From the NCBI GenBank assembly GCA_963765575.1, contig CAVXWZ010000011.1:64001-128000 (forward strand): DNA of 64,000 nt, written 5' to 3'. Origin of the DNA: an uncultured cyanobacterium. Its GTDB lineage: Bacteria; Cyanobacteriota; Cyanobacteriia; PCC-6307; Cyanobiaceae. Under the pieces are notes generated by a model that worked only from the letters and a program-made list of their open reading frames with translations, made no database searches and was not told the origin of the DNA. Below are positions 4,030-25,676 of this stretch, in pieces (position 1 is the first letter of the stretch; each line of letters starts with the position of its first letter). A program made the translations under genes and the position numbers.

Positions 4030-6493
<2,464 letters not shown>

Positions 6494-11534: not shown

Positions 11535-12242
11535 ATGCCCAAGCTGTCCAAGCGCTATTCCGACCTGGCCGCCAAGGTCGATGAGCGGTCCTACGCCCCG
11601 CTCGAGGCCATCGAGCTGGTGAAGGCCAACGCCACGGCCAAGTTCGACGAGACGATCGAGGCCCACGTGCGCCTCGGCATCGATCCCAAGTACACCGACC
11701 AGCAACTGCGCACCACCGTGGCCCTGCCCCACGGCACCGGCCAGGCCATCCGCATCGCCGTGATCGCCCGCGGTGAAGCCGTGGCCGCCGCCAAGGCCGC
11801 CGGTGCGGATCTCTCCGGCGACGACGACCTGGTGGAGGCCATCGCCAAGGGGGAGATGGACTTCGACCTGCTGATCGCCACCCCGGACATGATGCCCAAG
11901 GTGGCCAAGCTCGGCCGCGTGCTCGGCCCCCGCGGTCTGATGCCCAACCCCAAGGCCGGCACCGTGACCACCGACCTGGCCGGCGCCATCGGCGACTTCA
12001 AGGCCGGCAAGCTGGAGTTCCGCGCCGACCGCAGCGGCATCGTGCACGTGCGCTTCGGCAAGGCCAGCTTCGAGCCCGCCAAGTTGCTCGACAACCTCAA
12101 GGCCCTGCAGGAAACCATCGACCGCCAGAAGCCCAGTGGCGCCAAGGGCCGCTACTGGCGCTCCCTCTACGTCACCTCCACCATGGGTCCCTCGGTGCAG
12201 GTGGACTTCGCCGCCCTGCAGGACATCAAGCAGGAGGGTTGA
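11535..12242 (+). CDS. rplA: 50S ribosomal protein L1
   Basis: [37 protein letters not shown]. Confidence 0.98.
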
Positions 12243-12439
12243 GGCCGAGAGGAGGGCGAGGCGGCGCGGCTGCTTCCCAGGCCCTGCCTGCTTCGATGAC
12301 CGTGACGCACAGTGGCCACGGATGGCCTGGTGCCGCTGACCCCGCCGCGCTAGCGGCAGCTGGCTCCAGGCAGGCGGCAACCTTGCGGCTCTCCTGCAGC
12401 TGTTCTTTCAGGGTTGGGAGGAGGAAGCTCCCGAGGCGG

Positions 12440-13862
12440 AGGTGATCTGGAGCACCGAGGGGTCCGTGCGGCGGCGCGAGTCTGACCTCGGCGGTACGCG
12501 AGGCCCGGCGGCAGCTGGCCAGCTGTGGATGTTGGCCGGGCCGCCGCCATGTGGGTCTTTACCTCGGAGACGACAGTCCCAACCTCGTGGCTGGGTTGGC
12601 CTTCTTTCTCGATGGCCATTGCCAGATCGTGCTGCCCCAGCACGCCCCCCGTGATCAACTGAGCCAGCAGCTCATCACCATGGGCTGTGATCGGATCCTC
12701 AGCGACCAGCCTGACTTCGTGCCATCAGGCTGGCAGCCCAGGGCGACTCTGGCCTGGGCTGGCGGCCGGCTCCAGCTGCTCTGCCCTGAAGCTGAAGAGC
12801 CGCCGGGGCCAGGCTGCGCCGGATCCGGACCTCGCCTCTGCCGCGTTTCAGATCCTCTCCTCGGGAACCACCACGGGGCTTCCTTCGCTGCAGAGCCGCA
12901 CGTTTTTCTCGCTGCTCAGCTACGCCACCGCTGGCGAAGACTGGCTCTACTACACGCCCAGGCGCCTGGTGTGGCGCAACCTGCAGTTTCCCGGGCCCCG
13001 GGCCCAGCTGCTCAACCTGATCCTGGCCGGTGGCTGCCTCTGCTGGTTCTGCGCTGAGCAGGAGGATCAGCTCGGGGAGCTCTATGGCCGTAGTGGTGCC
13101 ACCCGCCTCCATCTCTTCGTGCCGCTGCTGCGGCGGCTGGTGGCCCAACAGGCCCTGCTGCGCTTCCCCGCTGAGCTGCAGTTGCTGGTCGGCACCGACC
13201 GGGTGCCAACGGCCCTGCGCGCTGCCGTGCACCGCCAGCGCCCGTCCAGCCTGGCCATCACCTACTCCACCAGCCAGTGCGGGCCGATCACGTACCTGCC
13301 CGCCAACCGGGCGCTGGAGCAGCCGGAATCGGTGGGCTGGCCGCTGCCCAACGTCCAGGTGGGGTTCATGGCGCCGCCAGACCGTGATGGGGCTGCCGAG
13401 ATCGTGGTCGACAAGACCATCACCCTGGCCTATCCCTCGCCGCTGGTCGGCTGGCAAGAGCACACCCAGTCCGTGGCGGCACTTCGCCCTGGCGATCGGT
13501 TGCGCAAACTGGACGATGGCCAGTTTCTCTATGCCGGCAGGGCCAATGATGTTTTCCTGCTGCGGGGGGTGCTGGTGTCGCCCCACGAACTGGAGGCCTT
13601 CCTGGAAGCCCAGCCCGGGGTGCTCGAGGCGGTGGCCTTCGGCGCCGAATCGAGCACCTATGGCGCGGTGCCCATGGCGGTAGTCCAGCTGGCGCCAGGA
13701 TTGGACCCCACGACAACGGCCCAGCAGCTGCAACGGCGCTCCCGGCAGCTCTTTGGTTTCCGAGGTCTCTATGCCGTTCACATCAACCAGGAGGTGCCTC
13801 GGGGAGTGGGAGGCAAGCCGCTGCGGCGGCAGCTCGCCCAGATCTACCGGCTGAACGCCTGA
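12440..13862 (+). CDS. Adenylate-forming (AMP-binding, acyl-CoA synthetase-like) enzyme 1, frameshifted, start uncertain
   Basis: SSGTTTGLP P-loop, YSTSQ, PGD, GRAND, C-terminal PRGVGGKPLRR; N-terminal part lies in the frame of ORF 12551..13057. Confidence 0.75.
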
Positions 13863-13878
13863 CCCTGCAGGCAGGGGC

Positions 13879-14382
13879 TCAGCCGCCGGGTCGTTTCAGA
13901 AAGCGCAGGGCTTCGGCACGGAATCCCCGCCGTTCATAGAAGCGGTGGGCGTCGTGGTTGGCGAATTTGGAGAACAATTGAAAGGCCCTGGCACCCCTGG
14001 CCGCCATGAACTCCTCGGAGTGAGCGAGCAGACGGTTGCCGATGCCCTTGCCGCGGTGCTCCGGGGCGACAGCCAGGGCCAGGATCCAGCCCATGGGTTC
14101 ATCACAGGTGTAAACCGGAAGCAGGATCAGGCCAATGAACCCCGTCAGCTCGCCGTTGTTGTCGGCCACGAAGCACTTGTAGAGGTGGTCGGGCATGGCC
14201 TCCAGCCGCCGCTGGATCGCCCCGGGGGTGGAGGGATAGCCGAGGCTGCCCACCAGGCAGGCGATGGCGGGGAGGTCGCTGTCGCGCAGGTCACGGATCA
14301 GGCCGGCACAGGCCGCATGGCTTTCACCGCCGCCTCCGCTTTCTGGACGGTTGTCCCAGGGCAGCTGGGCAGGAGCTGTCAC
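13879..14382 (-). CDS. GNAT family N-acetyltransferase
   Basis: Motif A LAVAPEHRGKGIGNRLL and motif B AHRFYERRGF. Confidence 0.9.
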   Translation of the reverse strand: MTAPAQLPWDNRPESGGGGESHAACAGLIRDLRDSDLPAIACLVGSLGYPSTPGAIQRRLEAMPDHLYKCFVADNNGELTGFIGLILLPVYTCDEPMGWILALAVAPEHRGKGIGNRLLAHSEEFMAARGARAFQLFSKFANHDAHRFYERRGFRAEALRFLKRPGG

Positions 14383-15970
14383 GACCTCAGGGCAAACTGC
14401 TCGGCCAACACACGCCGCAGGGGTTTGCCCGTGGGTCCGCGGGGGACATCCTCCACGATGACGACCTGCTTGGCCGAGCGAAAACCGAGCAACTCACGAC
14501 AGTGGTCCCGAAGCTGGGCGGCGATCTCCCTTGAGACCTCCGCTTCCGCTTCACCCACGGCCGCCCGGGCCGCTACGGCTGCACGGGCAGAGCCGCTCAG
14601 CATCACAGCGGCCATCGGGATGGCTCCGTAGGGGCTGGCCGGGGCGCCGAAGGCCACGCAGTCGGCCACGTCCGGTCGCTCTCGCAGCACGTCCTCGATC
14701 TCGAATGGAGACACCAGCACGCCACAGAACAGGAACACGTCATTGGAGCGACCCCCAAATCGGATCTGTCCGGTAGAGGATCGGGCCAGCAGATCGCCGG
14801 GGTTGAAGCTGCTGGTGTCCTCAAGCAGCTCGATCCTCCCAACTGCCATCGTTCCGGGGCAACCGCAGCCAGCGGCTCTTCCGAATCACCATTTCGTGAT
14901 AATCAAGCCCCTGCTTGTGCAGCAGCGCTGGACCATGGGGTTGGAAGCTCACACTCTCAAGGGGAAAACCCACCGATTCCACCTCGTCCAGCAGCTGCTC
15001 CGGAGGTAACCAGGTGAGCGGCCCCGTCTGGCTGGTGGCATAGGTGATGCCGAGCCGCAGCTTGCCGAGAGCTCGCCACCGCTCGACGCAGGTCCATGGG
15101 GATGTGGTCCGAGCCGGTAATGCAGAGAAATCCTTCCGGAAAACGACCGAGCTGTCCCTGCTGGAGCAGGCGCCGCAGGGTCAGGGGCGGGCAGGAGAAG
15201 CCGCTGGTGTTCGGGGGCAGCGAGCTGGGATCGAGCCCATGCCCGTCGCGCACCACGATGGGCTGGCCCCGCAGCAGGTAGCGCAGCTTGAACACCCGGG
15301 AGCTGTAGTCCTGCAGGCCCGGGCCCAGCAAGGGCTGCTCCAGGAGGTCGAAGGGCGACCAGTTCAGCCCCTGCTGCAGGGAGGCCATCCTCAGAAAGCT
15401 GATCCGGTGGATGCCCGGTCGACCGGAGGTGGTGCCTGACGTGATCGACAGAAAGGCGGCCGCATCGGCTCCCGCCTCGGCACCATCGTGATCCTTGTCG
15501 AAACCCGCCCCACGCCGATCCGATGGCCCTGGATCACGGATCTCAAGCAGCTGCAGACCCTCGGCGGTGATCCCCAAAGGGCGCACCTCCGCTTCGTCCA
15601 GGGGGCACTCTCCCTCGACGAGCAGGTGGGTGAGCTCCAGCCGCCGGATCAGTTCACGCCGTTCCCGCGCTGGGGCATAGCGGGCCAGCACGGCTTGGCT
15701 CATGCCAGCCCATACCAGCGCCAGCATGGCGATCAGATGCCGGGGGGAATCGCTGGCGTGAACCCCGACCCGGATCGGCCGGGACCTGGAGCAGCCTGAC
15801 AATGGATCCTGGAGCGCCCTGCCTTCCTGACGTAGCCGCTGCAGCAACTCCAGTCCAGTGATTCCAGGCAGATCGCCCCAGTCGATGACAACAATGTCTG
15901 AGGCGGCGACGAGCCGTTGCTCGAGCTCACCACGAAGCGTGTGGATTGCAAGGTCGCACCCGCAGCTCAT
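14379..15970 (-). CDS. Adenylate-forming enzyme 2, split by frameshifts (14957..15970 + 14379..14849)
   Basis: TSGTTSGRPG, ITGSD, NPGDL, GGRSNDVF, VSPFEIE, PRGPTGKPLRR; overlaps GNAT start and HExxH stop. Confidence 0.8.
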
Positions 15971-16995
15971 ACCGCCGGCTGTGGGCTCAGTTCGAGGCGG
16001 TCACAACAGATCTGCATAATCTGATGTCCCAGGGCGGTGAGACGACCATGCCGCTGAATGGCACCCAGGGACGACTGCGTGAGTTCCTGCACAGAGGAGC
16101 GCAGTGTCTGCAGCTCCACGACCAGCTGGTCTCGGTCGGAGCGCCAGGGCATCGGGTGGCGGATAGCGGCGTCGAGAAAGGCCACCAGCCGCGCCGCCAC
16201 ATAAAAGGAATGGAGGATGCCGTTCATCGGCCTTGGATCGCGGCGAATCAGCACGCTGTAGCGCTCCTGGTCGGTGTTGGTGCACATCAGCTCGTTCTGG
16301 GAGAGCACGAACAGTTCGGCATGGGCGTATTCGTGGATCAGGGTCACAACCCAGGCGCAAAATGTACGCTCCATTGCCGCATTGATGATGCTGCCTCCCC
16401 TGAAGAAGAAGGTGGTGGCACTGCCGAACCATTGTCCCGCCTCCCTGGCGGCCGGTCCTGGCTCGGCCAAGATCACCACGGCTTGCAGGGCTTCCATGCC
16501 CCGTGCCAGAGGGGCATCGATTTTGCCAATGAAGTCGCGAGCTTCGCTGATGATGGCTGCCTGGGTGGTGCAACGGGCCGGAGCTGGGCTCTCGAGATCG
16601 AGCAGGAAATCGCCTCCTTCCGAGAAGAGTCCCACCAGCAGATCCCAGTGCTGGAGCGGCCGCGACTCCGCTCCATAGGCCAGGACCGTCAGTGGGGGCA
16701 GGAGATGTCTGATCTCCAGCCGCAGTGCTTCGATGAGGTCCGCAGCTGGGATGGCGTCAGGGTTTTGCAGCAGGATGCGGCCGATCTTCCAGTAGAAGAG
16801 ATACACCCATGGGCTCAGGGTGTTCTGGGCTTGCTGTTCAAAACGATCCTGCAGGGCTGCTGCCAACTGTGCTTCTGCCAGTGCAGGGGAATGGCCCTCA
16901 AAGGCCTGTATTGACCAGAGCAGATCAGATCGTCCGAGTGCCAACAGCTCAACGATCGACGCTACCTCAGGTGAGGTGTCGGATTTGAGAGTCAA
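15967..16995 (-). CDS. HExxH-motif putative peptide-modifying protein (aKG-HExxH type) 2
   Basis: FGSATTFFFRGG, LIHEYAHAELF, YSVLIRRDPRPMNGILHSFYV, LTALG. Confidence 0.85.
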   Translation of the reverse strand: MTLKSDTSPEVASIVELLALGRSDLLWSIQAFEGHSPALAEAQLAAALQDRFEQQAQNTLSPWVYLFYWKIGRILLQNPDAIPAADLIEALRLEIRHLLPPLTVLAYGAESRPLQHWDLLVGLFSEGGDFLLDLESPAPARCTTQAAIISEARDFIGKIDAPLARGMEALQAVVILAEPGPAAREAGQWFGSATTFFFRGGSIINAAMERTFCAWVVTLIHEYAHAELFVLSQNELMCTNTDQERYSVLIRRDPRPMNGILHSFYVAARLVAFLDAAIRHPMPWRSDRDQLVVELQTLRSSVQELTQSSLGAIQRHGRLTALGHQIMQICCDRLELSPQPAV

Positions 16996-17177
16996 GCAGC
17001 ATTTCCACCATTGCCGGATTCGCCTTCACCCACTTTGGCCGAAAGGTGCGACTGGCAGGTGGGAACCGAGGCCGAGTTGCTGTGGTCGGGATCAATGAAT
17101 GGATCAGAGGGCTCTGCGCCTGAATTGGCTAGTGCCAAAGCTGCGAGTCGAAAACCGAAGAGATGACTGAGTTGCAT
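16992..17177 (-). CDS. Putative precursor peptide (61 aa), divergent family member
   Basis: MQLSHLFGFRLAALALANSGAEPSDPFIDPDHSNSASVPTCQSHLSAKVGEGESGNGGNAA; shares LFGF and KVG; stop overlaps HExxH-2 start. Confidence 0.7.
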   Translation of the reverse strand: MQLSHLFGFRLAALALANSGAEPSDPFIDPDHSNSASVPTCQSHLSAKVGEGESGNGGNAA

Positions 17178-17399
17178 GGTTGGCACAACAATAGTGGTGA
17201 AAAGGAGAACAAGCCTGGCAGCATCACCGGTCCGCCTCTCCTTCACTCACTTTGGCCGATAGCTGGGATGGGGATGTGTCGACCGCGACAGCTAGGTGCG
17301 TCACGGTGGCCTCCCCGAGGGTGGCTGGGCTGAGGCTGGGCCCACGGTTGACATCACGTATCAGATTGCGAGAAGGTCCCATGCTGACGAGTAGCCAGT

Positions 17400-17678
17400 T
17401 TGAGCCACGACCCAGCCCCAGACCGCGAGCTCGCCATGATCGGCAGCGCCCTGCGCTCCCTCTCCCTGCCGCCGCAGGATCTTGAGGGGCTTGAGGCTGA
17501 GCTGCGTCGTGACCACGCCAGTCTGCCGATCGAGCACCTGGGGCTGGACAGCCTCGGCCGCATGGAGTTCTGCATCCACCTGGAGCTCGACCACGGGGTG
17601 GTGATCACTCCGGAAACCCTGATCACGCTGAAGACGGTGGCGGCGTTGATCGAGTCGATCCAGGCCCAGTTGGTCTGA
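17400..17678 (+). CDS. Acyl/peptidyl carrier protein
   Basis: LGLDSLGRMEF phosphopantetheine Ser motif, acidic ~80-92 aa, TVAALIE; alternative ATG at 17436. Confidence 0.85.
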   Translation: MSHDPAPDRELAMIGSALRSLSLPPQDLEGLEAELRRDHASLPIEHLGLDSLGRMEFCIHLELDHGVVITPETLITLKTVAALIESIQAQLV

Positions 17679-17682
17679 ATAG

Positions 17683-18718
17683 CTAGCCCGCCAGCTCTTC
17701 GGCCCCCACATCCCAGGCCAGGGGATCCAGGCCCTCTGAAGCCTCGTCTTGGCGAGCCTCGGTTCGCAGCAGGCTGGGCATGGCCTGCTCCAGATTCACC
17801 CCCTGCAGGAGCAGGTCGTGGAACAGGGTGTGGTGGGTGCAGCCCCTGTAGACGCGTCCACTGATCCTGCTCTGGCGCCGGTGCTGCTGCTGGTAGTAGC
17901 TGGCGATCGAGCCAGCGCAGGAGCGATCGGCGGCGTTGTGTTCGGGGTAGGCGAGCACCAGGCGGGTGCGCGGCCATCGCGGCCACCAGCTGCCGATGCC
18001 GCCGTGGGCCCTGGCCACGGCGCCGCCGGGCCGGAAGGTTTGGGGTTCACCACCTGCACCGATGGCCACACCCTGGGCCAGCCCCAGCTGCTGAGCCACC
18101 ACCAAAGCGGCCAGGCCGCCGGCGCTGGTGCCCAGGGTCTGCACCTGGGAGCGGCGCAGGCCACTGCGGCTGAGCCTGCCGAGGTGCTGACGCAGATGAC
18201 GGGTGATGTCTCGCAACACCTCGCCCTGGTGATGGAAATAGCCCTCGAGAGTATGGCGCCTGCACCAGCAGAAGATCGTGCCCGATTGTGCCGAGCGCCG
18301 AGAGGATGTAGGGCGTCGGCGCCATCAGCAGCCCCACATTGCCGGTGAAGCCGATCAGCACAGGCCGGGGCGGGCCATCGGAATCCGGAAGCGGAGCGGC
18401 TTGATAATGAATGATCTCGTGATACTTTCCCGGGTGTACCCGCCGGCTATAGCGGGCTGTGGCCGTCCTGTAGGAGGGCGAAAATCGTTTGGCTTTCTGT
18501 CGCCATCGCTTGAAATCGGAACTGGCGCCTGAATCGCGACGGGCCAGCCGCAACAGCGCTGCCAGCTCGCTGCCAGTGGCGAAGCGATCGATCAGCATCT
18601 GGTGCTGGTTGATGCGATTGGTGTTCAGCGCTTTGAGTCGCTCATACCACTGCGCCGGGGATTCGGCGCGCAGCTCTCGCTCCAGCTCCTCCCAGGGAAG
18701 TTGGGGGGGGCTGGTCAT
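17683..18718 (-). CDS. Alpha/beta-hydrolase-like protein, frameshifted near 18250
   Basis: N-part MTSPPQLPWEE...VLIGFTGNVGLLM; C-part LGTSAGGLAALVVA (GxSxG) and GCTHH; ATG overlaps the upstream stop. Confidence 0.55.
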
Positions 18719-21164
18719 GTCTGCAGGGCGTACTGCTCGCTGAGCAGCCGGCGCAGGGGCTTCCCGGTTGGGCCTGCGGGAATGGCATCGAGCGCCATGA
18801 TCCGGCGGGGACGGCGCTGGCCGAGGCCAGCGCGGGCCAGCTGGTCGAGTTCGGCAAGAACAGCGGGAGCTTGATGGCCGGTCCGCAGGCGCACGGCGGC
18901 CATCGGCACGCCCCCATAGCGCTTGGATTGGGCGCCGAAGGCCACGCATTGCTCCACGGCCTCGTGCTGGCTGAGCACCTCCTCGATCTCGTAGGGAGAG
19001 ATCAGCACGCTGGCGAACAGGAAGATGTCATTGGAGCGCCCCCCGAAGATCACCTGGCCCGATGCCGAGAAGGCCAGCAGGTCGCCCGGGTTGAAGGGGC
19101 TGTAGCCGGGCGCGCACACGATCACCTCACGGAAGCTGAGTCCGTCCCGTTCGTAGCGCACCGGACCGGTGGGCTCGAGCGTGACGCCCCGCAGGGGCCA
19201 GCCCACCGAATCCTTCTCCGCCAGCAGCGCTTCCGGGGGCAACCAGGTGAGCGGCCCGCTCTGGCTGGTGGCGTAGGTGATGCCCAGGCGCACGGTGCCG
19301 ATCGCCGCCACGGCCTGCCGCAGGTCCATCGGCACCCGGTCGCTGCCGCTGATCAGCAGAAACCCTGGCGGGCAGTGGCGCAGGTCGTCCCAGGCCAGAT
19401 GCAGCCGCAGCCCGTTGGGCGGCATCGGCATGCCATCGCAGTGCTCCGGGATGCTGCCGGCGGCGAACGGGGTGTCGCTGGAGCGAATCACCAGACCGCT
19501 TCCCTTGAGCAACACCACAAACTTGAACAGGCGGGCACTCCAGTTCTGGAGCCCCTCGCCCAGCAACGGCGAACGCAGCAGGTGGAAGGGGGAGTGAGCG
19601 TCTCCTGGATGCAGCATGGAGATGGCCTTCGCCTCCACCAGCCCCGGACGGCCTGAGCTGGTGCCCGAGGTGGTGCCGATCAAGAGCACGGGATTGCTGC
19701 CAGGCGCCTCGCCACAGACTTCAGGCGTGCTCTGGCGCTGCCAGCAGCCCAGGCCCGAGGGCAGGGAGCCGAGGCGGATCCAGTCCCCGGCGGTCTGGGG
19801 AGCCGGTGGCCGATGCGGTGGGTGAGGGCGAGGCGGTGTTCGAGCGCCTCCTGCTCGCGGGTGGTGGCGGTGATGGGCAGGATGGTCTGGGGCAGGGCCG
19901 AGAGCATCAGCGCCATCCCCGTGATCAGATTCACGGGGCCGTCTTCGATCTGAATGCCCACCCGGGCGGTGACTCCCCAGGTCTTGAGGGGGATGAGGGT
20001 GTGCAGTTCGCGCCGCTCGTTGGCGACCCGTTCGGCGAGGTTGTTGTAGCTGATGCTGTGTCCCAGCCAGTCGATGGCGGTGGCATCGGGCTCGGCACGG
20101 GTCAGCTCCCGCCAGCGCTCGTTGAGCTGCTCCTGCACGGGTTGCAGTGTCCCAGCCTCAACGGCGCTGGGCAGGGATACGGTGCCCCGGCCGCACCGCT
20201 CCAGCCGTTGGGCGGCAGCGTCCACCACCACCTCGCCGATGGGGGTGAGCCTGGCGTGCTCGCGCACCACTGCCAAAGAGGAGAGGCCCTGGGCCAGCTG
20301 TTGCTCCCGCAGTTGCTGAAAGGCGGCCAGGTCCTCCGGGCCAGTGAGGAGATCCATCGGCGGCTGGCTGAGGATCGTGTCGATCACGCCGATCACCCGC
20401 GAGACCACATGCAGGGAATGGAGGATGCCGTGCATCGGGCGGGGATCGGCGCGGATCAGCACCTGGTGGCGCTCCTCGTCGCGGTTGAGGCAGAGCACCT
20501 GCTCCTGCCCCAGGGCAAACAGCTCGCCGTGGGCATACTCATGCACCAGCACCTCCACGGTGGCAGCGAGGCTGCGCGGCAGCGAGGCGTTGAGCACACT
20601 GGCGCCACGAAAGAAGAAGGCTGTGACTCCGCCGAACGACTCTCCTCGCCGTTGGGAGCGGGGCCCGGGGATCGCCAGCACAAGCAGCCGCTGAAGCCGC
20701 AGCATCAAGCCATGCAGGTCAGGGTCGACCAGGGCAATCAGACGGCGTGCGGTCTGGATTTCCTGCTTCAGGGCGTCCAGGTGCAGCGCTGAGGGGGCAG
20801 AGAGATCCTCGACGAAGTCGCCACCTTCCTGCAGCACTGCCAGCAGGGTGGTCCACATCTGCGGGGACGCCTGATCGGAATCCCCGAACGCCACAACAGT
20901 GGGCCCTTGTGCAGGTGAGCCCCTCTCAGCAACGTGACTGTCGTGAGCCAGCCCATGCTCGGCCAGGGCCAATGCGGTGGTGAAGGCCCGCTGCCGTGCC
21001 TGGGAGCCAACCGGCAGATCGGACAGCACCACTTTGCCGAGCTCGTAGTAACCGAGATAGAGCCAGGGAGAGAGGGAGGTTGGCTGGTCCTCGATCCTTT
21101 GTTGAACTGTCTGCGGCAGTAAACCCCAGCCCAGCGATGGATCATGGGCGCTCAGCAAGGACAC
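18715..21164 (-). CDS. HExxH domain protein 1 continuing into adenylate-forming domain 3 (apparent fusion; frameshift ~19700-19830)
   Basis: LVHEYAHGELF...IRADPRPMHGILHSLHV, then PDATAIDWLGHSISYNNL; after shift TTSGTSSGRPG, YATSQ, NPGDL, GRSND, PAGPTGKPLRR. Confidence 0.8.
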
Positions 21165-21345
21165 AGAGTCGGCTGAACTGCCGGTGGGCTGTATTCACCG
21201 CTCTGTGCACGCTGGAAGCGAGGTGGTTTTCGCCTGCGATCACGGGGAGAAGCTGCTTGGGGCTAGCCGAGTGGTTGAGTTGTGGCAGACAGTTTTACTT
21301 CAGCGTGGAAAAGGTTTGTTCAAGCGGGATCGAAGCTTGGGTTGG

Positions 21346-21498
21346 TTAATTTGGAATCATTTCAACGTTGATTCCCCGATGAGGGATGTCGATCTCATAT
21401 TCTCTACCCTCTCCGCCAATTTTTGGCTGAGTGCTGGAGGGGATGGCGTCGTGAGGCGCGAAGCCAAAAAGCTCGGTGATGAGAGCGGTATTGGTCAT
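21346..21498 (-). CDS. Putative precursor peptide A (50 aa)
   Basis: MTNTALITELFGFAPHDAIPSSTQPKIGGEGREYEIDIPHRGINVEMIPN*. Confidence 0.8.
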   Translation of the reverse strand: MTNTALITELFGFAPHDAIPSSTQPKIGGEGREYEIDIPHRGINVEMIPN

Positions 21499-21661
21499 GG
21501 AACTGTGGAGATGTGAATTCGAAGAGAATCGATTGAAGGCGTCATGATCGAGATATTGACGCTTCTACTTAATCAAACGAGAAACTGTTGCTAGCTGGTC
21601 TTTGCGGGTGGATGAATCCAGCTGGGAGGCCGAAGCGTGGTGGCTTCGTGACCTTTAAGGC

Positions 21662-21823
21662 TCACCAGATTTCAATCGGGGGCCACGGCTTTTCTACGCC
21701 GACGTGCTCAGTGGGAAACAATGGACGTCCAACTTTCGGCTGAGTGCTGGAGGAAATGGTGTGCTGACGGGCGAAACCAAAGAGGCAACCCGCGAGAGAA
21801 ACGTTGTCAGAGAGGATGGCCAT
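21662..21823 (-). CDS. Putative precursor peptide B (53 aa)
   Basis: MAILSDNVSLAGCLFGFARQHTISSSTQPKVGRPLFPTEHVGVEKPWPPIEIW*. Confidence 0.8.
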   Translation of the reverse strand: MAILSDNVSLAGCLFGFARQHTISSSTQPKVGRPLFPTEHVGVEKPWPPIEIW

Positions 21824-22058
21824 TGAACAGCAAATCACAATGTGACGCATTTTTGCTGGGTTGCCAGAGTTTGTCAAGCCCCAGATCCGGGACGCCATTG
21901 ATCTCCCCGTCGCTCCCCGGGTTGACAGGCGATGAAGGCGAGCTGAGGGTAGGGCTAAGGCTTGATTTTGCCCGATGGGGTTCGGTCTGATCCACCTCTG
22001 CCCTCGGCCAGGGGCTCGCCGAACGACTGAATGCTGCCAGCCACGCCAGAGCTGGTCT

Positions 22059-22196
22059 TTAGGCTGGAATGGCTTCGTATCCGGGCGGCATGGGTTGAAC
22101 TGGGATGCCATTACCCATCTTGGGCTGGATACTGGAAGGAATGCTGTATTGACGGGCGAACCCGAAAAGCTTGTTTGCGAGGGCGGGATTGGTCAT
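22059..22196 (-). CDS. Putative precursor peptide C (45 aa)
   Basis: MTNPALANKLFGFARQYSIPSSIQPKMGNGIPVQPMPPGYEAIPA*. Confidence 0.85.
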   Translation of the reverse strand: MTNPALANKLFGFARQYSIPSSIQPKMGNGIPVQPMPPGYEAIPA

Positions 22197-22538
22197 GGGT
22201 TAAATGAAGTGAGAGGGCTGAAGTGAAGGTGGTTTGGCTGAGGTGGCTTCAACACTTAAAGATTTCGCTCTGCCAGGGAGGGGAGGTGCGTATCATAGGC
22301 AATCTAGAGCTGAAGAGATCTCAGCGGCTCAAAAGATCAGAGACGAGTTGCTTGACCCGCCTCCTTTTCAGATTCTAATTTCGCTCTTTCCCCCGAGATT
22401 GTCAAGCAGGAGCTGAGATCGCGAGGGGAGTATTTCAACAGGACTGACGGTTCTCTTCCCATGGCGCAGCGGGGGGGGCCGCCGGACAGCCTTCCAGAAA
22501 CAGTCAGCACAGAAAGGTAAGAATGCTATTCATCAGAC

Positions 22539-22566
22539 AAACCTCTGAGCAATTGCTCAGAGGTTT
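22539..22566. repeat. Perfect 28-bp palindrome
   Basis: aaacctctgagcaattgctcagaggttt. Confidence 0.9.
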
Positions 22567-22621
22567 TTACTGCTACTGATTTTGGGAATCAATTGGCGAC
22601 CTCTAACCCGTGGCACTCACC

Positions 22622-22915
22622 ATGCGCTGCTTTGCTGGGATCGACATGATCACCAACCGGACCCCGGACGGGACTACGATTCTGGCGTTTCAGGGCCCCA
22701 TGGTTGACGATGTGGCAGGGCATCGGAAAGTGGCCAGATATGGGTGACAGCAAGACGGAGTTCAGGATCGCCTTGCGGCCTGGGCACCGCAAGGAACTGC
22801 CTGATACGGCCTAGGACAGGTTGAGCATGCCTTCCCGGTGGTTAATCAGCAGTATTGCTTTGAGAAGACATGGACTCGGGCCATGGAGAAAACCGTTGCA
22901 AGGAGATCCTGCTGA
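22622..22915 (+). mobile_element. Degenerate IS5-family transposase remnant
   Basis: MRCFAGIDMITNRTPDGTTILAF / WQGIGKWPDMGDSKTEFRIALRPGHRKELPDT / EHAFPVVNQQYCFEKT resemble IS5 segments PDETTILxF, AMRPGKR and VEHPFRVIKQQFG. Confidence 0.7.
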
Positions 22916-23247
22916 CTGCACGACCAAGAAATCTGGCCTAAATGCTCAACATTCAGCCAGCGGACGTTGGCTTTGACAAGCTGTTTGGTTGACGGAGTTG
23001 AGCGGACCATGTTGCAGATAACTTCAGCAACTGCGGCTGTGTGGTAACCAAAGTTCTGTACCTGCGGGCCTTGAGATGCTTCCCGCAGGCGATCGGAGGA
23101 ACAGGGACCGGATGGGTTCCGCCAAAGCAGTAGTTGTTGAAAAATGGAGTATTAGACGCTCGCTTTTTTAGAGCGGACTAGTCCGAATTTAAGACTAATG
23201 TACTCAACTTTGCGCTCTTGAAGCTAACTCTAAGTTTCCGGGTAGTT

Positions 23248-23399
23248 TTAGTTTTCTATGATTTCGCCTGGAGGGAGAGGATTCTTTGGGCCGACATGCA
23301 CTGAGCTCTCCAATTTTGGGCTGTGTGCTGGAGGGAATCGTGTGCTGACGGGCGAAGCCGAAAGAGGCCATCGACAAGAAGCGAGCTTGAATAAGGCAT
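23248..23399 (-). CDS. Putative precursor peptide D (two apparent +1 frameshifts)
   Basis: MPYSSSLLVDGL / FGFARQHTIPSSTQPKIGE / SVHVGPKNPLPPGEIIEN*; span is 152 nt = 150+2. Confidence 0.65.
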
Positions 23400-23672
23400 A
23401 GTCACGGCAATGTGGATGGAATTGTAGTCACCATGCATTTGCTGCCCGAATTCGACAAGCCCCCGATCCGGGCCGCCAACGGGCTCTCTGGGGGTGCCTG
23501 ACATGGTGAAAGCTTCTGGCCTAATCACCAACTCCAAAGGCGTCGCAGACCATTTGGGGCGGGTCTCAAGCCTGACTCCCCCCGATGCTGCTCTAGTGTG
23601 ATCCAACTCTGACCTTGGACAGGGGGCTCGGCGAATGACTGAACGCTGCCAGGCCCCCCCCAGAGCTGATGT

Positions 23673-23810
23673 TTACTCTGGATTGGCTTCGTAGGCGGGG
23701 GACCTGGGTCTGAAGTCTGGGCCACCACCGATCTTGGGCTGAGTGCTGGAGGGGGTGGTGTATTGAGGTGCGAAGCCAAAAAGCTTGGGGATGAGAGCGG
23801 TATTGGACAT
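23673..23810 (-). CDS. Putative precursor peptide E (45 aa)
   Basis: MSNTALIPKLFGFAPQYTTPSSTQPKIGGGPDFRPRSPAYEANPE*. Confidence 0.85.
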   Translation of the reverse strand: MSNTALIPKLFGFAPQYTTPSSTQPKIGGGPDFRPRSPAYEANPE

Positions 23811-24028
23811 GGAATTGCAGGAATGTGATTCGAAGGTGACCGAAAAAAGAGGCGTCGTGATCGAGATATTGATACTTTTGCTTGATCAAGCGAGAGTGTC
23901 TTTGTCGCGCTGACCTTCCCGGGGGGATGAATACAGCGTACAGATAAGGAGGGCCCCCTAGTGCCCTATGGAGTGTTGAAAGCAAGCCTCAGAGTAATTT
24001 TAGCGGTACTCTGCTTCCATCGGGGGCT

Positions 24029-24148
24029 TCACTCGCGGCGTGCACGGCGACCCCCAACTTTCGGCTGAATGCTGGAGGGAATGGTGTGCTGACGCGCGAA
24101 ACCAAAGAGGTTGGTCACGAGAGCAGGATTTCCTGAAAGCTTTGCCAC
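24029..24148 (-). CDS. Putative precursor peptide F (39 aa as read; C-terminus uncertain at a G5 run)
   Basis: (GTG)MAKLSGNPALVTNLFGFARQHTIPSSIQPKVGGRRARRE*. Confidence 0.75.
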   Translation of the reverse strand: MAKLSGNPALVTNLFGFARQHTIPSSIQPKVGGRRARRE

Positions 24149-24419
24149 TGGAGGAATTACTATGACTCCTCTCACCTTGGCCTGGTTGCCAGGGTTTGTG
24201 CAACCCCAATATCCGGGACGCCATCGACCTCTCTGGAGATCCCTGCCGACCCTGGCAGTACTCACCATTGCTCCGCGGGGCAGAGAGGCGCTGAAGCCGA
24301 GCTGAGGGCAGGGCTCAGGCTTGATATCGACCGATCGGGTGCGGTGCTGATCAGCCTCTGCCTTCGGCCAGGTGCTGGCCACGCGAGTGAACTGCTGTCA
24401 GCCACGCCAAAGCTGGTCT

Positions 24420-24548
24420 TTAGGTTGGATTGGCTTCGTAGGGGGGTTGAACTGGCGTGCCCACACCCATCTTGGGCTGAGTGCTGGAGGGGATGGTGTA
24501 TTGACGGGAGAAGCCAAACAGCTTGTTGACGAAGATGGGATTGGCCAT
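24420..24548 (-). CDS. Putative precursor peptide G (42 aa)
   Basis: MANPIFVNKLFGFSRQYTIPSSTQPKMGVGTPVQPPYEANPT*. Confidence 0.85.
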   Translation of the reverse strand: MANPIFVNKLFGFSRQYTIPSSTQPKMGVGTPVQPPYEANPT

Positions 24549-24904
24549 GGGATGCATCGATTGGGTGAGATAGTTGGCAAAGATGTCGGGCTTGGAGCTG
24601 AATCAAGTGAGTCCACCGAATCGCAACTGAAGCGCCAGTTCAGGCAGAAATCCAATGATCCCGGCTCAGAGCGGTGCAGGCTTGATCTTGGCAAATCGCT
24701 TATTTACTTTAATTGTATCTTCCCTCTTTGTCAATTTAACGATCAGTCTCCTGGGCCAGGGGCCCAGCCCGCCGCGAGGTGACGCCACCGGGGCCGATGG
24801 GTTCAGCATGCCGCTGTGCGCCGGGTCCTGGGACGGTCCAGGGTCTTTCTTGAGGGTAGGCTGCTATGGTGATGAGCTGGCTTCGGCCAGACGGGCACGC
24901 GCCC

Positions 24905-24976
24905 GACCCCAGACAGCAGGTTGGACAAGGCTCCGGTTCGCCGGTGAATCCTTATTCGTAAGCCCTGCCGAGGTGA
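24905..24976 (+). promoter_or_regulatory. Ribosomal protein L10 leader (autoregulatory RNA)
   Basis: AGACAGCAGG...CCCTGCCGAGG pair typical of L10 leaders, upstream of rplJ. Confidence 0.75.
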
Positions 24977-25142
24977 ACGCGACAGGTTTCAGCCTCCAGT
25001 GCACCAGCGGCCTCCTGCCGCCGGCGAGCTGGTCGGGCCCGGAGCATGCAGCGGCCTCGCCACCAGTTCTGAGCCGTTTCCCGGCGCAGACGGTGTCCCA
25101 GGGCCGCGTACCCCGCTTGTTCCCCCGATCCGTTCCTTCCCT

Positions 25143-25676
25143 ATGGGCCGCACGCTGGAGAGCAAGCAACAGATCGTCGAAGAGCTCAAGGGGCTCCTCG
25201 GTGACGCCGAAATGGCGCTGGTCCTTGATTACAAGGGCCTGTCCATCAAGGAGATGTCTGACCTGCGGACCCGTCTGCAGGCCAGCAACGGTGTCTGCAA
25301 GGTGACCAAGAACACCTTGATGCGCCGGGCCATTGATGGCGACAGCGCCTGGTCGGAACTCGATTCCCTGCTCACTGGCACCAACGCCTTCGTGCTCATC
25401 AAGGGCGACGTGGGTGGTGCGGTGAAGGCCCTGCAGTCCTTCCAGAAGGACAGCAAGAAATCGGAAACGAAAGGAGGCCTGTTCGAAGGCAAGCTCCTCT
25501 CGCAAGCCGAAATCCAGGCCATCGGGGATCTGCCCTCCAAGGAGGTGCTCATGGCCCAGATCGCCGGTGCGATCAATGCCGTGGCCACCCAACTGGCGGT
25601 GGGCATCAACGAAGTTCCCTCCGGCCTCGCCCGGGCGCTCCAGCAGCACGCCGATGGCGACGGTTCGGCCTCCTGA
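25143..25676 (+). CDS. rplJ: 50S ribosomal protein L10
   Basis: [44 protein letters not shown]. Confidence 0.97.

Follow-up and report, generated by a model that had tools for sequence, protein, structure and literature searches.

Enzymes of the aKG-HExxH type were recognised recently and have already been credited with several chemistries; those characterised mostly perform beta-hydroxylation, according to the available part of PMC13060819. In triceptide pathways, the domains ChlBH/ChlH and SjiH (PDB 8s5f and 22ob; family TIGR04267) partner a radical SAM enzyme and act on a pre-formed cyclophane, as described in the accessible sections of PMC12636437. The same sections present the Pseudomonas pfl and pos enzymes PflC and PosC as stand-alone HExxH proteins, encoded near a GNAT, that depend on a leader and act on a short motif some distance from it. 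These clusters feature an NHLP leader, a Gln run, ARMD and an MNIO-nitroreductase, and no ANL ligase, ACP or hydrolase appears in that part of the account (PMC12636437). PesO of the nitrilobacillins, which hydroxylates Pro, and BpmH are likewise stand-alone HExxH hydroxylases acting on short precursors, from MNIO-centred clusters with other precursor motifs (excerpts of PMC13060819 and PMC12257519). Among acylated RiPPs, the selidamides and goadvionins combine hydroxylation with acylation of (hydroxy)ornithine or (hydroxy)lysine; the acyl group is transferred by a GNAT, NHLP/Nif11 precursors are the substrates of lanthionine synthetases, and goadvionins use an ACP-bound acyl donor (PMC8784127, as far as available).

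The window analysed here, the whole 64,000-nucleotide stretch of a Cyanobiaceae contig, encodes two HExxH proteins, HExxH-1 and HExxH-2, and a set of short peptides that includes p8 (Table 1). HExxH-2 scores 70.7 bits against TIGR04267 (cut-off 40), and its predicted fold (model pLDDT 92) matches ChlH 8s5f with E 2.8e-12 and TM 0.70. It shares with ChlBH/ChlH and SjiH the HExxH signature, the third His and the RP..G.LH motif, and residues H221, E222, H225 and H262 are invariant in 44 sequences. From sequence and modelled fold, this putative oxygenase would use Fe, aKG and O2 to oxidise a peptide. Unlike the triceptide systems, the cluster has no radical SAM/SPASM maturase among the ORFs scanned. 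HExxH-2 resembles PflC/PosC in standing alone with a GNAT nearby, and leader-dependent action on a distant short motif is predicted for it too, but NHLP leader, Gln run, ARMD and MNIO-nitroreductase were all absent from the p8 cluster. PesO and BpmH differ in their cluster context and precursor motifs; the string 'FGF' occurs nowhere in the main texts of PMC13060819 and PMC12257519, although the Pro hydroxylation by PesO may bear on the seven QPKxG paralogues of p8. The cluster also departs from the selidamides, since its GNAT is accessory and it has no LanM; the selidamide hallmark, in which a GNAT of the selidamide clade serves as core enzyme for an NHLP/Nif11 precursor, was not found there.

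As a short ORF with a conserved recognition motif and a co-occurring modifying enzyme, p8 has the general features of a RiPP precursor. Neither p8 nor four paralogues matched any NCBIfam/Pfam precursor family (NHLP, Nif11, FxSxx and others), and 12 relatives of p8 gave no NCBIfam match; the ESM Atlas returned no usable match to p8. A literature search that omitted most subscription papers turned up no description of this peptide/HExxH/ligase family and no characterised member of this HExxH clade. The p8/HExxH-2 system is a putative, uncharacterised variation on aKG-HExxH RiPP chemistry.

Table 1. Features of the p8 locus, numbered in the window.
Feature	Position	Strand	Basis or remark
p8 precursor peptide gene, 61 aa, family-typical	16992..17177	-	translation, motif matrix, relatives-only profile
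LFGFRL motif, p8 residues 6-11, predicted leader/recognition element	17145..17162	-	motif matrix, complex model
S-H-L-S-A-K-V-G motif, p8 residues 43-50, placed above the Fe site by prediction	17028..17051	-	motif matrix, complex model
HExxH-2, intact aKG-HExxH oxygenase (HEYAH 221-225, H262), 342 aa from TTG	15967..16995	-	TIGR04267, fold
HExxH-1, frameshifted in first ~25 codons	20199..21243	-	frame comparison
Seven divergent paralogues, (L)FGF[AS]..S-S-[TI]-Q-P-K-[IVM]-G	21346..24557	-	at 24557, 24148, 23810, 23371, 22196, 21823, 21498
Ninth, leaderless ORF, S-Q-L-S-A-K-V-S-E-G-E	17224..17382	-	49-nt 76% repeat of p8 3' part
AMP ligase 1, frameshifted near 19790; 5' part in frame with HExxH-1	18715..20138	-
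AMP ligase 2 (ANL family), three reading frames, breaks near 15065 and 14850	14379..15970	-
AMP ligase 3, two frames, break near 12750	12317..13862	+
GNAT, intact; accessory	13879..14382	-	paired with AMP ligase 3 in L012, L020
Acyl carrier protein (GLDSLG), intact, divergent from p8	17400..17678	+
Alpha/beta hydrolase (GTSxGG), frameshifted near 18250	17683..18718	-
rplA, left flank of conserved insertion site	11535..12242	+
rplJ, right flank of conserved insertion site	25139..25676	+

The earlier note, which named no strand, had placed a peptide here whose TGA overlaps the start of HExxH-2, and both statements were borne out. Translation of the minus strand gave exactly the quoted 61 residues, and the plus strand contains internal stops. 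The p8 stop codon (16994-16992) shares bases with a TTG (16995-16993) in the string TTGA. This TTG, the probable start, opens a frame of 342 codons and is the sole in-frame start ahead of a conserved helix; the following one is TTG 16944. The overlap is not a family trait: it was seen in none of 12 relatives checked, where the gaps span 4-219 nt, and in L018 and L021 the peptide gene lies downstream of HExxH. Conserved translational coupling of peptide and enzyme was rejected on this count.

Recognition of p8 as a family member did not depend on this genome. With a profile built from 24 relatives' peptides, none of them from this genome, p8 ranked first among 47,529 stop-to-stop genome segments (E 3.8e-7); the next-best segment reached E 0.097 and the p8 paralogues 0.1 or worse. 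A six-frame search over 2.7 Mb yielded a single LFGF[RKQ]L. In 18 genes, the motifs are conserved at the amino-acid level and not at the DNA level: synonymous positions vary, the motif Gly uses all four codons, and the Ser five residues before the Lys (K-5) is encoded by both TCN and AGY.

Peptide and enzyme also travel together. Their pairing would be coincidental if, as the earlier note put it, homologous HExxH genes elsewhere had no upstream peptide, and that is not what was found. Alignment of HExxH fetched 21 related loci (8 from genomes, 13 from metagenomes), and peptides of the type LFGF[RKQ]L...S-x-[LVI]-[ST]-[AST]-K-[VIM]-G are present in 19 of them; the two loci lacking one, L034 and L036, start inside the HExxH gene. 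The peptide was also found at L011, L012 and L016, and three more loci, which repeat the peptides of L018, L020 and L021, were counted once. According to the tree, the close loci represent about nine lineages, with many close kin. Among 401 genomes of the family, the HExxH profile picked out 11 and the peptide profile 8, every one of the 8 being HExxH-positive. This count is circular in that the peptide profile contains their own peptides, but none of the 390 remaining genomes matches it.

The other three HExxH-positive genomes carry divergent GF..KxG peptides, recognised by eye. Together with L015 and L047 they form the sister clade of the close HExxH clade, and all five loci have a related peptide, whose leader is L[LH]GF or QYGF and whose target motif is mostly AK[IV]G. 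In L065 an LLGFRL leader goes with K-x-G repeats. The gene following HExxH encodes an AMP ligase in every close locus that extends far enough. In the five distant loci it encodes a cyanophycin-synthetase-like ATP-grasp (3/5), an AMP ligase (1) or an unassigned protein (1), so that an ATP-dependent carboxylate-activating enzyme comes next in 4/5. No such peptide accompanies the HExxH gene in three cyanobacterial loci linked to a radical SAM gene (L050, below the family cut-off, was excluded from this control). Four plasmid hits resembled the distant clade (25-33% identity across half the length), and the three that were read showed no GF..KxG peptide; no locus outside cyanobacteria in this set carries one. 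The peptide thus co-occurs with this HExxH clade, and does so with a conserved gene order. In a set of representatives clustered at 50% identity, the clade counts 107 proteins at E up to 1e-30.

Some distant loci hold several precursors. Five tandem LLGF...[EA][VIA]QAKI[GS] peptide genes precede HExxH and a cyanophycin-synthetase-like ATP-grasp in L047 (5855-6961). L063 (4326-6041) has four, with QYGF leaders, GEGG repeats and LI[AS]KIG; HExxH follows, then an AMP ligase of 849 aa and an ATP-grasp-like gene. Distant HExxH domains were seen by eye in the fusion proteins P0147, P0193 and P0094, joined respectively to an adenylation/carrier/thioesterase-like module, to TPR and sulfotransferase-like parts and to a glycosyltransferase-like part.

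That p8 is a chance ORF, or a DNA or RNA motif misread as protein, could be argued from the promoter/terminator scan, which found neither a promoter-like site nor a terminator, and from the unconserved start/stop overlap. The profile score, the synonymous codon variation and the peptides of 19/21 loci effectively refute such a reading, to which we assign a negligible chance. In our estimate p8 is, with high probability, a real precursor recognised by HExxH-2. Many relatives have its motifs next to this type of iron enzyme, and p8 therefore likely serves as the natural substrate in a peptide-modifying pathway not yet described.

Comparison with relatives changed the view of which peptide is the unusual one. 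The leader of the close clade reads L-F-G-F-[RK]-L in 34 distinct peptides, and the target reads S-x-[LVI]-[ST]-[AST]-K-[VIM]-G-[EG] in 66 motifs. K, [VIM] and G belonged to the search pattern, so that their conservation is partly built in. The Ser at K-5, which the earlier note had missed, lay outside the pattern and is present in 64 of the 66; position K-1 is more varied (A 33, S 21, T 6, P 3, D 3). Each leader is followed by 1-4 K motifs, the first at a spacing of 15-42, the tails after the motif Gly are hypervariable, and conservation does not extend beyond the motifs. Conservation of Ser(K-5) is not shared by the distant clade (3/15 motifs). One leader with three or four SSLT[ST]KVGE repeats is seen in the low-GC precursors L027:49-255, L031:453-686 and P0062; the tails of L027 and L031 hold little beyond repeats of the K motif.

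With a scoring matrix derived from relatives, p8 obtains 23.6 and 23.8 bits on the two motifs, where the relatives' medians are 23.3 and 24.3. Six of the seven QPKxG paralogues were scored, and these reach 10.5-12.9 and 6.6-14.3 bits, about half the p8 score or less. The description of p8 as the divergent copy that keeps only LFGF and xKVG is thereby inverted: it retains LFGFRL and S-H-L-S-A-K-V-G-E and, judged by sequence, p8 is a typical family member, the divergence lying with the seven QPKxG copies. Nor does p8 define a minimal motif, since with p8 at the family median and its paralogues low the minimal code is longer than LFGF plus KxG and includes the Ser at K-5. Its much longer spacer did hold up, with an L-to-K distance of 42 versus 16 in the six scored paralogues; the L018 peptide, whose gene is also divergent from an ACP gene, shares the spacing of 42. 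The ninth, leaderless ORF, located where p8 and the ACP gene diverge, may be either a remnant or a substrate in trans.

Structure prediction of the p8/HExxH-2 complex, a check proposed in the earlier note, gave a score of 0.91, and the best of three controls reached 0.07. The same mark was attained by 116 of 157 solved pairs and 2 of 215 mismatched pairs, counts that apply only roughly here; the complex model used custom alignments and an iron ligand, unlike the calibration. Runs shared at least 62% of contacts, with a partner pLDDT of at least 58. The score may reflect likeness to solved zincin-peptide complexes, with their characteristic strand geometry. In the model, LFGFRL packs against the N-terminal helices of HExxH-2, and F7, G8 and F9 of p8 contact G21, L25, S28, Y68, G72, F196, F197 and Q233, a pocket holding 4 of the 7 near-invariant residues of the N-terminal domain. 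Residues 20-39 make no confident contact. Residues 40-52 pair with strand 189-197 and contact H225, N258 and H262, over the metal site. Conservation of interface residues averages 0.75 compared with 0.53 overall, a figure that is not independent of the alignment fed to the model. p8 is thus predicted to bind HExxH-2 with its 20-39 spacer looped out. The suggestion that LFGF is an enzyme-recognition element agrees with its conservation in all related peptides and with its modelled place in a conserved pocket. The proposal that K(I/V/M)G is the site of modification or cleavage stands as far as the site is concerned, this region being repeated up to four times per leader and modelled over the metal; either chemistry is compatible with it.

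P0002, the database entry for HExxH-2, has 279 aa and matches from residue 62 onward, and so lacks the predicted leader-binding helix. In HExxH-1, a frame change near the 5' end (21100-21250) splits most of the helix from the catalytic domain, leaving an open frame without most of the first helix.

In related genomes the genes form a recurring cassette (rplJ / peptide > HExxH > AMP ligase > hydrolase >< ACP / rplA). A cassette lies between rplA and rplJ (here 12243-25000) in nearly all close loci with enough flank; this site is conserved (L011, L012, L016-L037), yet the peptide profile matches only 8/401 family genomes. The hydrolase has an esterase fold with S9/esterase-like structural neighbours and the invariant residues S198 (in GTSxGG), D264 and H296. 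The ACP keeps the DSL serine; of the ANL motifs, a P-loop variant and the catalytic Lys are present in the AMP ligase.

Two sub-modules had been proposed for this locus, each made of peptide, HExxH, adenylation enzyme and a tailoring gene (GNAT or hydrolase). The first three genes do form a unit: L017 has peptide, HExxH and ligase only, the content of module 2, with neither hydrolase nor ACP. The GNAT, matched in just two related loci, forms a convergent pair with the third AMP ligase in the single-module loci L012 and L020 and so is not the tailoring gene of module 2. What is conserved is the series peptide > HExxH > AMP ligase, to which a hydrolase and an ACP are usually added; the GNAT is accessory.

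HExxH-1 and HExxH-2 are 37% identical and not sisters; HExxH-1 groups with L020 (support 100/100), HExxH-2 is unplaced, its nearest relative being L017, and recent tandem duplication of the two modules was rejected on these placements. Module 1 as a whole is nearest L020 (ligase and hydrolase ~71% identical), and module 2 looks, from the sequences, like a second unit inserted between ACP and GNAT. A separate genome, L087, has genes resembling AMP ligase 3 and the hydrolase but nothing that matches this HExxH clade. L017 and L087 show that oxygenase and acyl kit do not strictly go together.

Five partner genes overlooked as broken in the earlier note are frameshifted: HExxH-1, the hydrolase and AMP ligases 1, 2 and 3. 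Relative to intact relatives, the frame changes in ligase 1, the hydrolase, ligase 2 (twice) and ligase 3, and HExxH-1, after its change in the first 25 codons, reads through into ligase 1 without a stop. p8 and HExxH-2 remain the sole intact precursor-oxygenase pair at the locus. Frame changes were found in none of 10 flanking genes and none of 27 matched loci outside the cluster, a coarse control on which assembly-wide indel error was rejected as the cause of the breaks, and another genome (L085) has an interrupted ligase at the same site. The pathway is likely decaying in this strain, to judge from these reading frames, and with ligases and hydrolase frameshifted the route likely stops after the oxygenase step.

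In the proposed mechanism, the adjacent HExxH-2 would likely receive LFGFRL of p8 on its N-terminal helices. Its next action would likely be to hydroxylate SxLSAKVG at or next to the Lys, presumably by Fe/alpha-ketoglutarate-dependent beta-hydroxylation. The AMP ligase would adenylate a carboxylic acid and load it onto the ACP, and the Ser hydrolase would move the acyl group onto the (hydroxy)lysine or the conserved Ser. Hydroxylation followed by acylation is favoured because both clades have an unvarying Lys and because HExxH is almost always followed by a gene for a carboxylate-activating enzyme, and the selidamides, in which hydroxylation comes ahead of acylation, offer a precedent (PMC8784127, available part). 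As a full account of the chemistry, hydroxylation at or beside Lys and then acylation is a serious candidate, if somewhat short of an even chance. An unlikely competitor has HExxH-2 oxidise the alpha carbon of a small residue and cleave the backbone to leave a C-terminal amide, as PflC/PosC do at ARMD. AKVG is superficially like ARMD, the cassette has no dedicated protease gene, and hypervariable tails after the motif Gly would suit such a cut. PosC cuts at Ala and partly at Gly, and not at Ser, Val or Gln, in the accessible text of PMC12636437; the target would be the Gly of K-V-G and less likely the Ala before K, where the variety of K-1 residues is unfit for cleavage. Amidation, however, explains neither the fixed Lys nor the obligatory ligase, and the NHLP leader and Gln run of PflA are both absent from p8.

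An AMP ligase, an ACP and a Ser hydrolase together embody the logic of small-molecule assembly, which fits the rather improbable idea that the peptide is a scaffold or carrier: a small molecule would be built on its Lys, Ser or C-terminus and released by the hydrolase. The swap of ligase type between clades with K-x-G kept, and the absence of conservation outside the motifs, point the same way, but arrays of up to 7 variant genes and motif repeats within peptides resemble multi-core RiPP precursors. More improbable still, the alpha/beta hydrolase could be a leader peptidase with K-V-G as its cut site and the variable tail as the core, N-acylated after release. Its S9/esterase-like neighbours are in keeping with this, as are the goadvionins, N-terminally acylated after leader removal (PMC8784127, same part). 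Against it, loci without a hydrolase (L017 and the ATP-grasp clade) keep the motif, and the tails of L027 and L031 are hardly more than motif repeats.

Taken beyond p8, the hydroxylation-acylation proposal might describe a new RiPP class, a tentative idea that we doubt rather more than we trust. One leader/core code, L[FLH]GF...K[VI]G, with up to four repeats per precursor, would serve one oxygenase clade and interchangeable ATP-dependent ligases. Picocyanobacterial enzymes (adenylating enzyme, ACP and Ser hydrolase) would acylate the freshly hydroxylated Lys, and outside picocyanobacteria a cyanophycin-synthetase-like ATP-grasp would perform the ligation. If so, within the literature searched, no HExxH enzyme directed at lysine would precede this one, and no ribosomal lipopeptide would have had an acyltransferase of the hydrolase type before.

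p8, and not the QPKxG array, is now the representative peptide, and with HExxH-2 it makes a two-gene test pair containing the only intact oxygenase at the locus; the model supplies residue-level predictions for leader pocket and target motif. Ligases, broken in this strain, should come from intact relatives. If the predictions are true, a six-residue leader that tolerates spacers of 15 to 42 residues and serves repeated motifs would make a convenient peptide-tagging tool.

The peptide array (21000-24500) has 52-60% GC compared with ~69% for the contig, and 74 nt between its peptides (22618-22691) match contig C9 at 85%, possibly as a mobile-element remnant. Elsewhere in the window, the enolase frame (4493-6478, minus strand) extends well beyond the C-terminus expected from the usual length of enolase.
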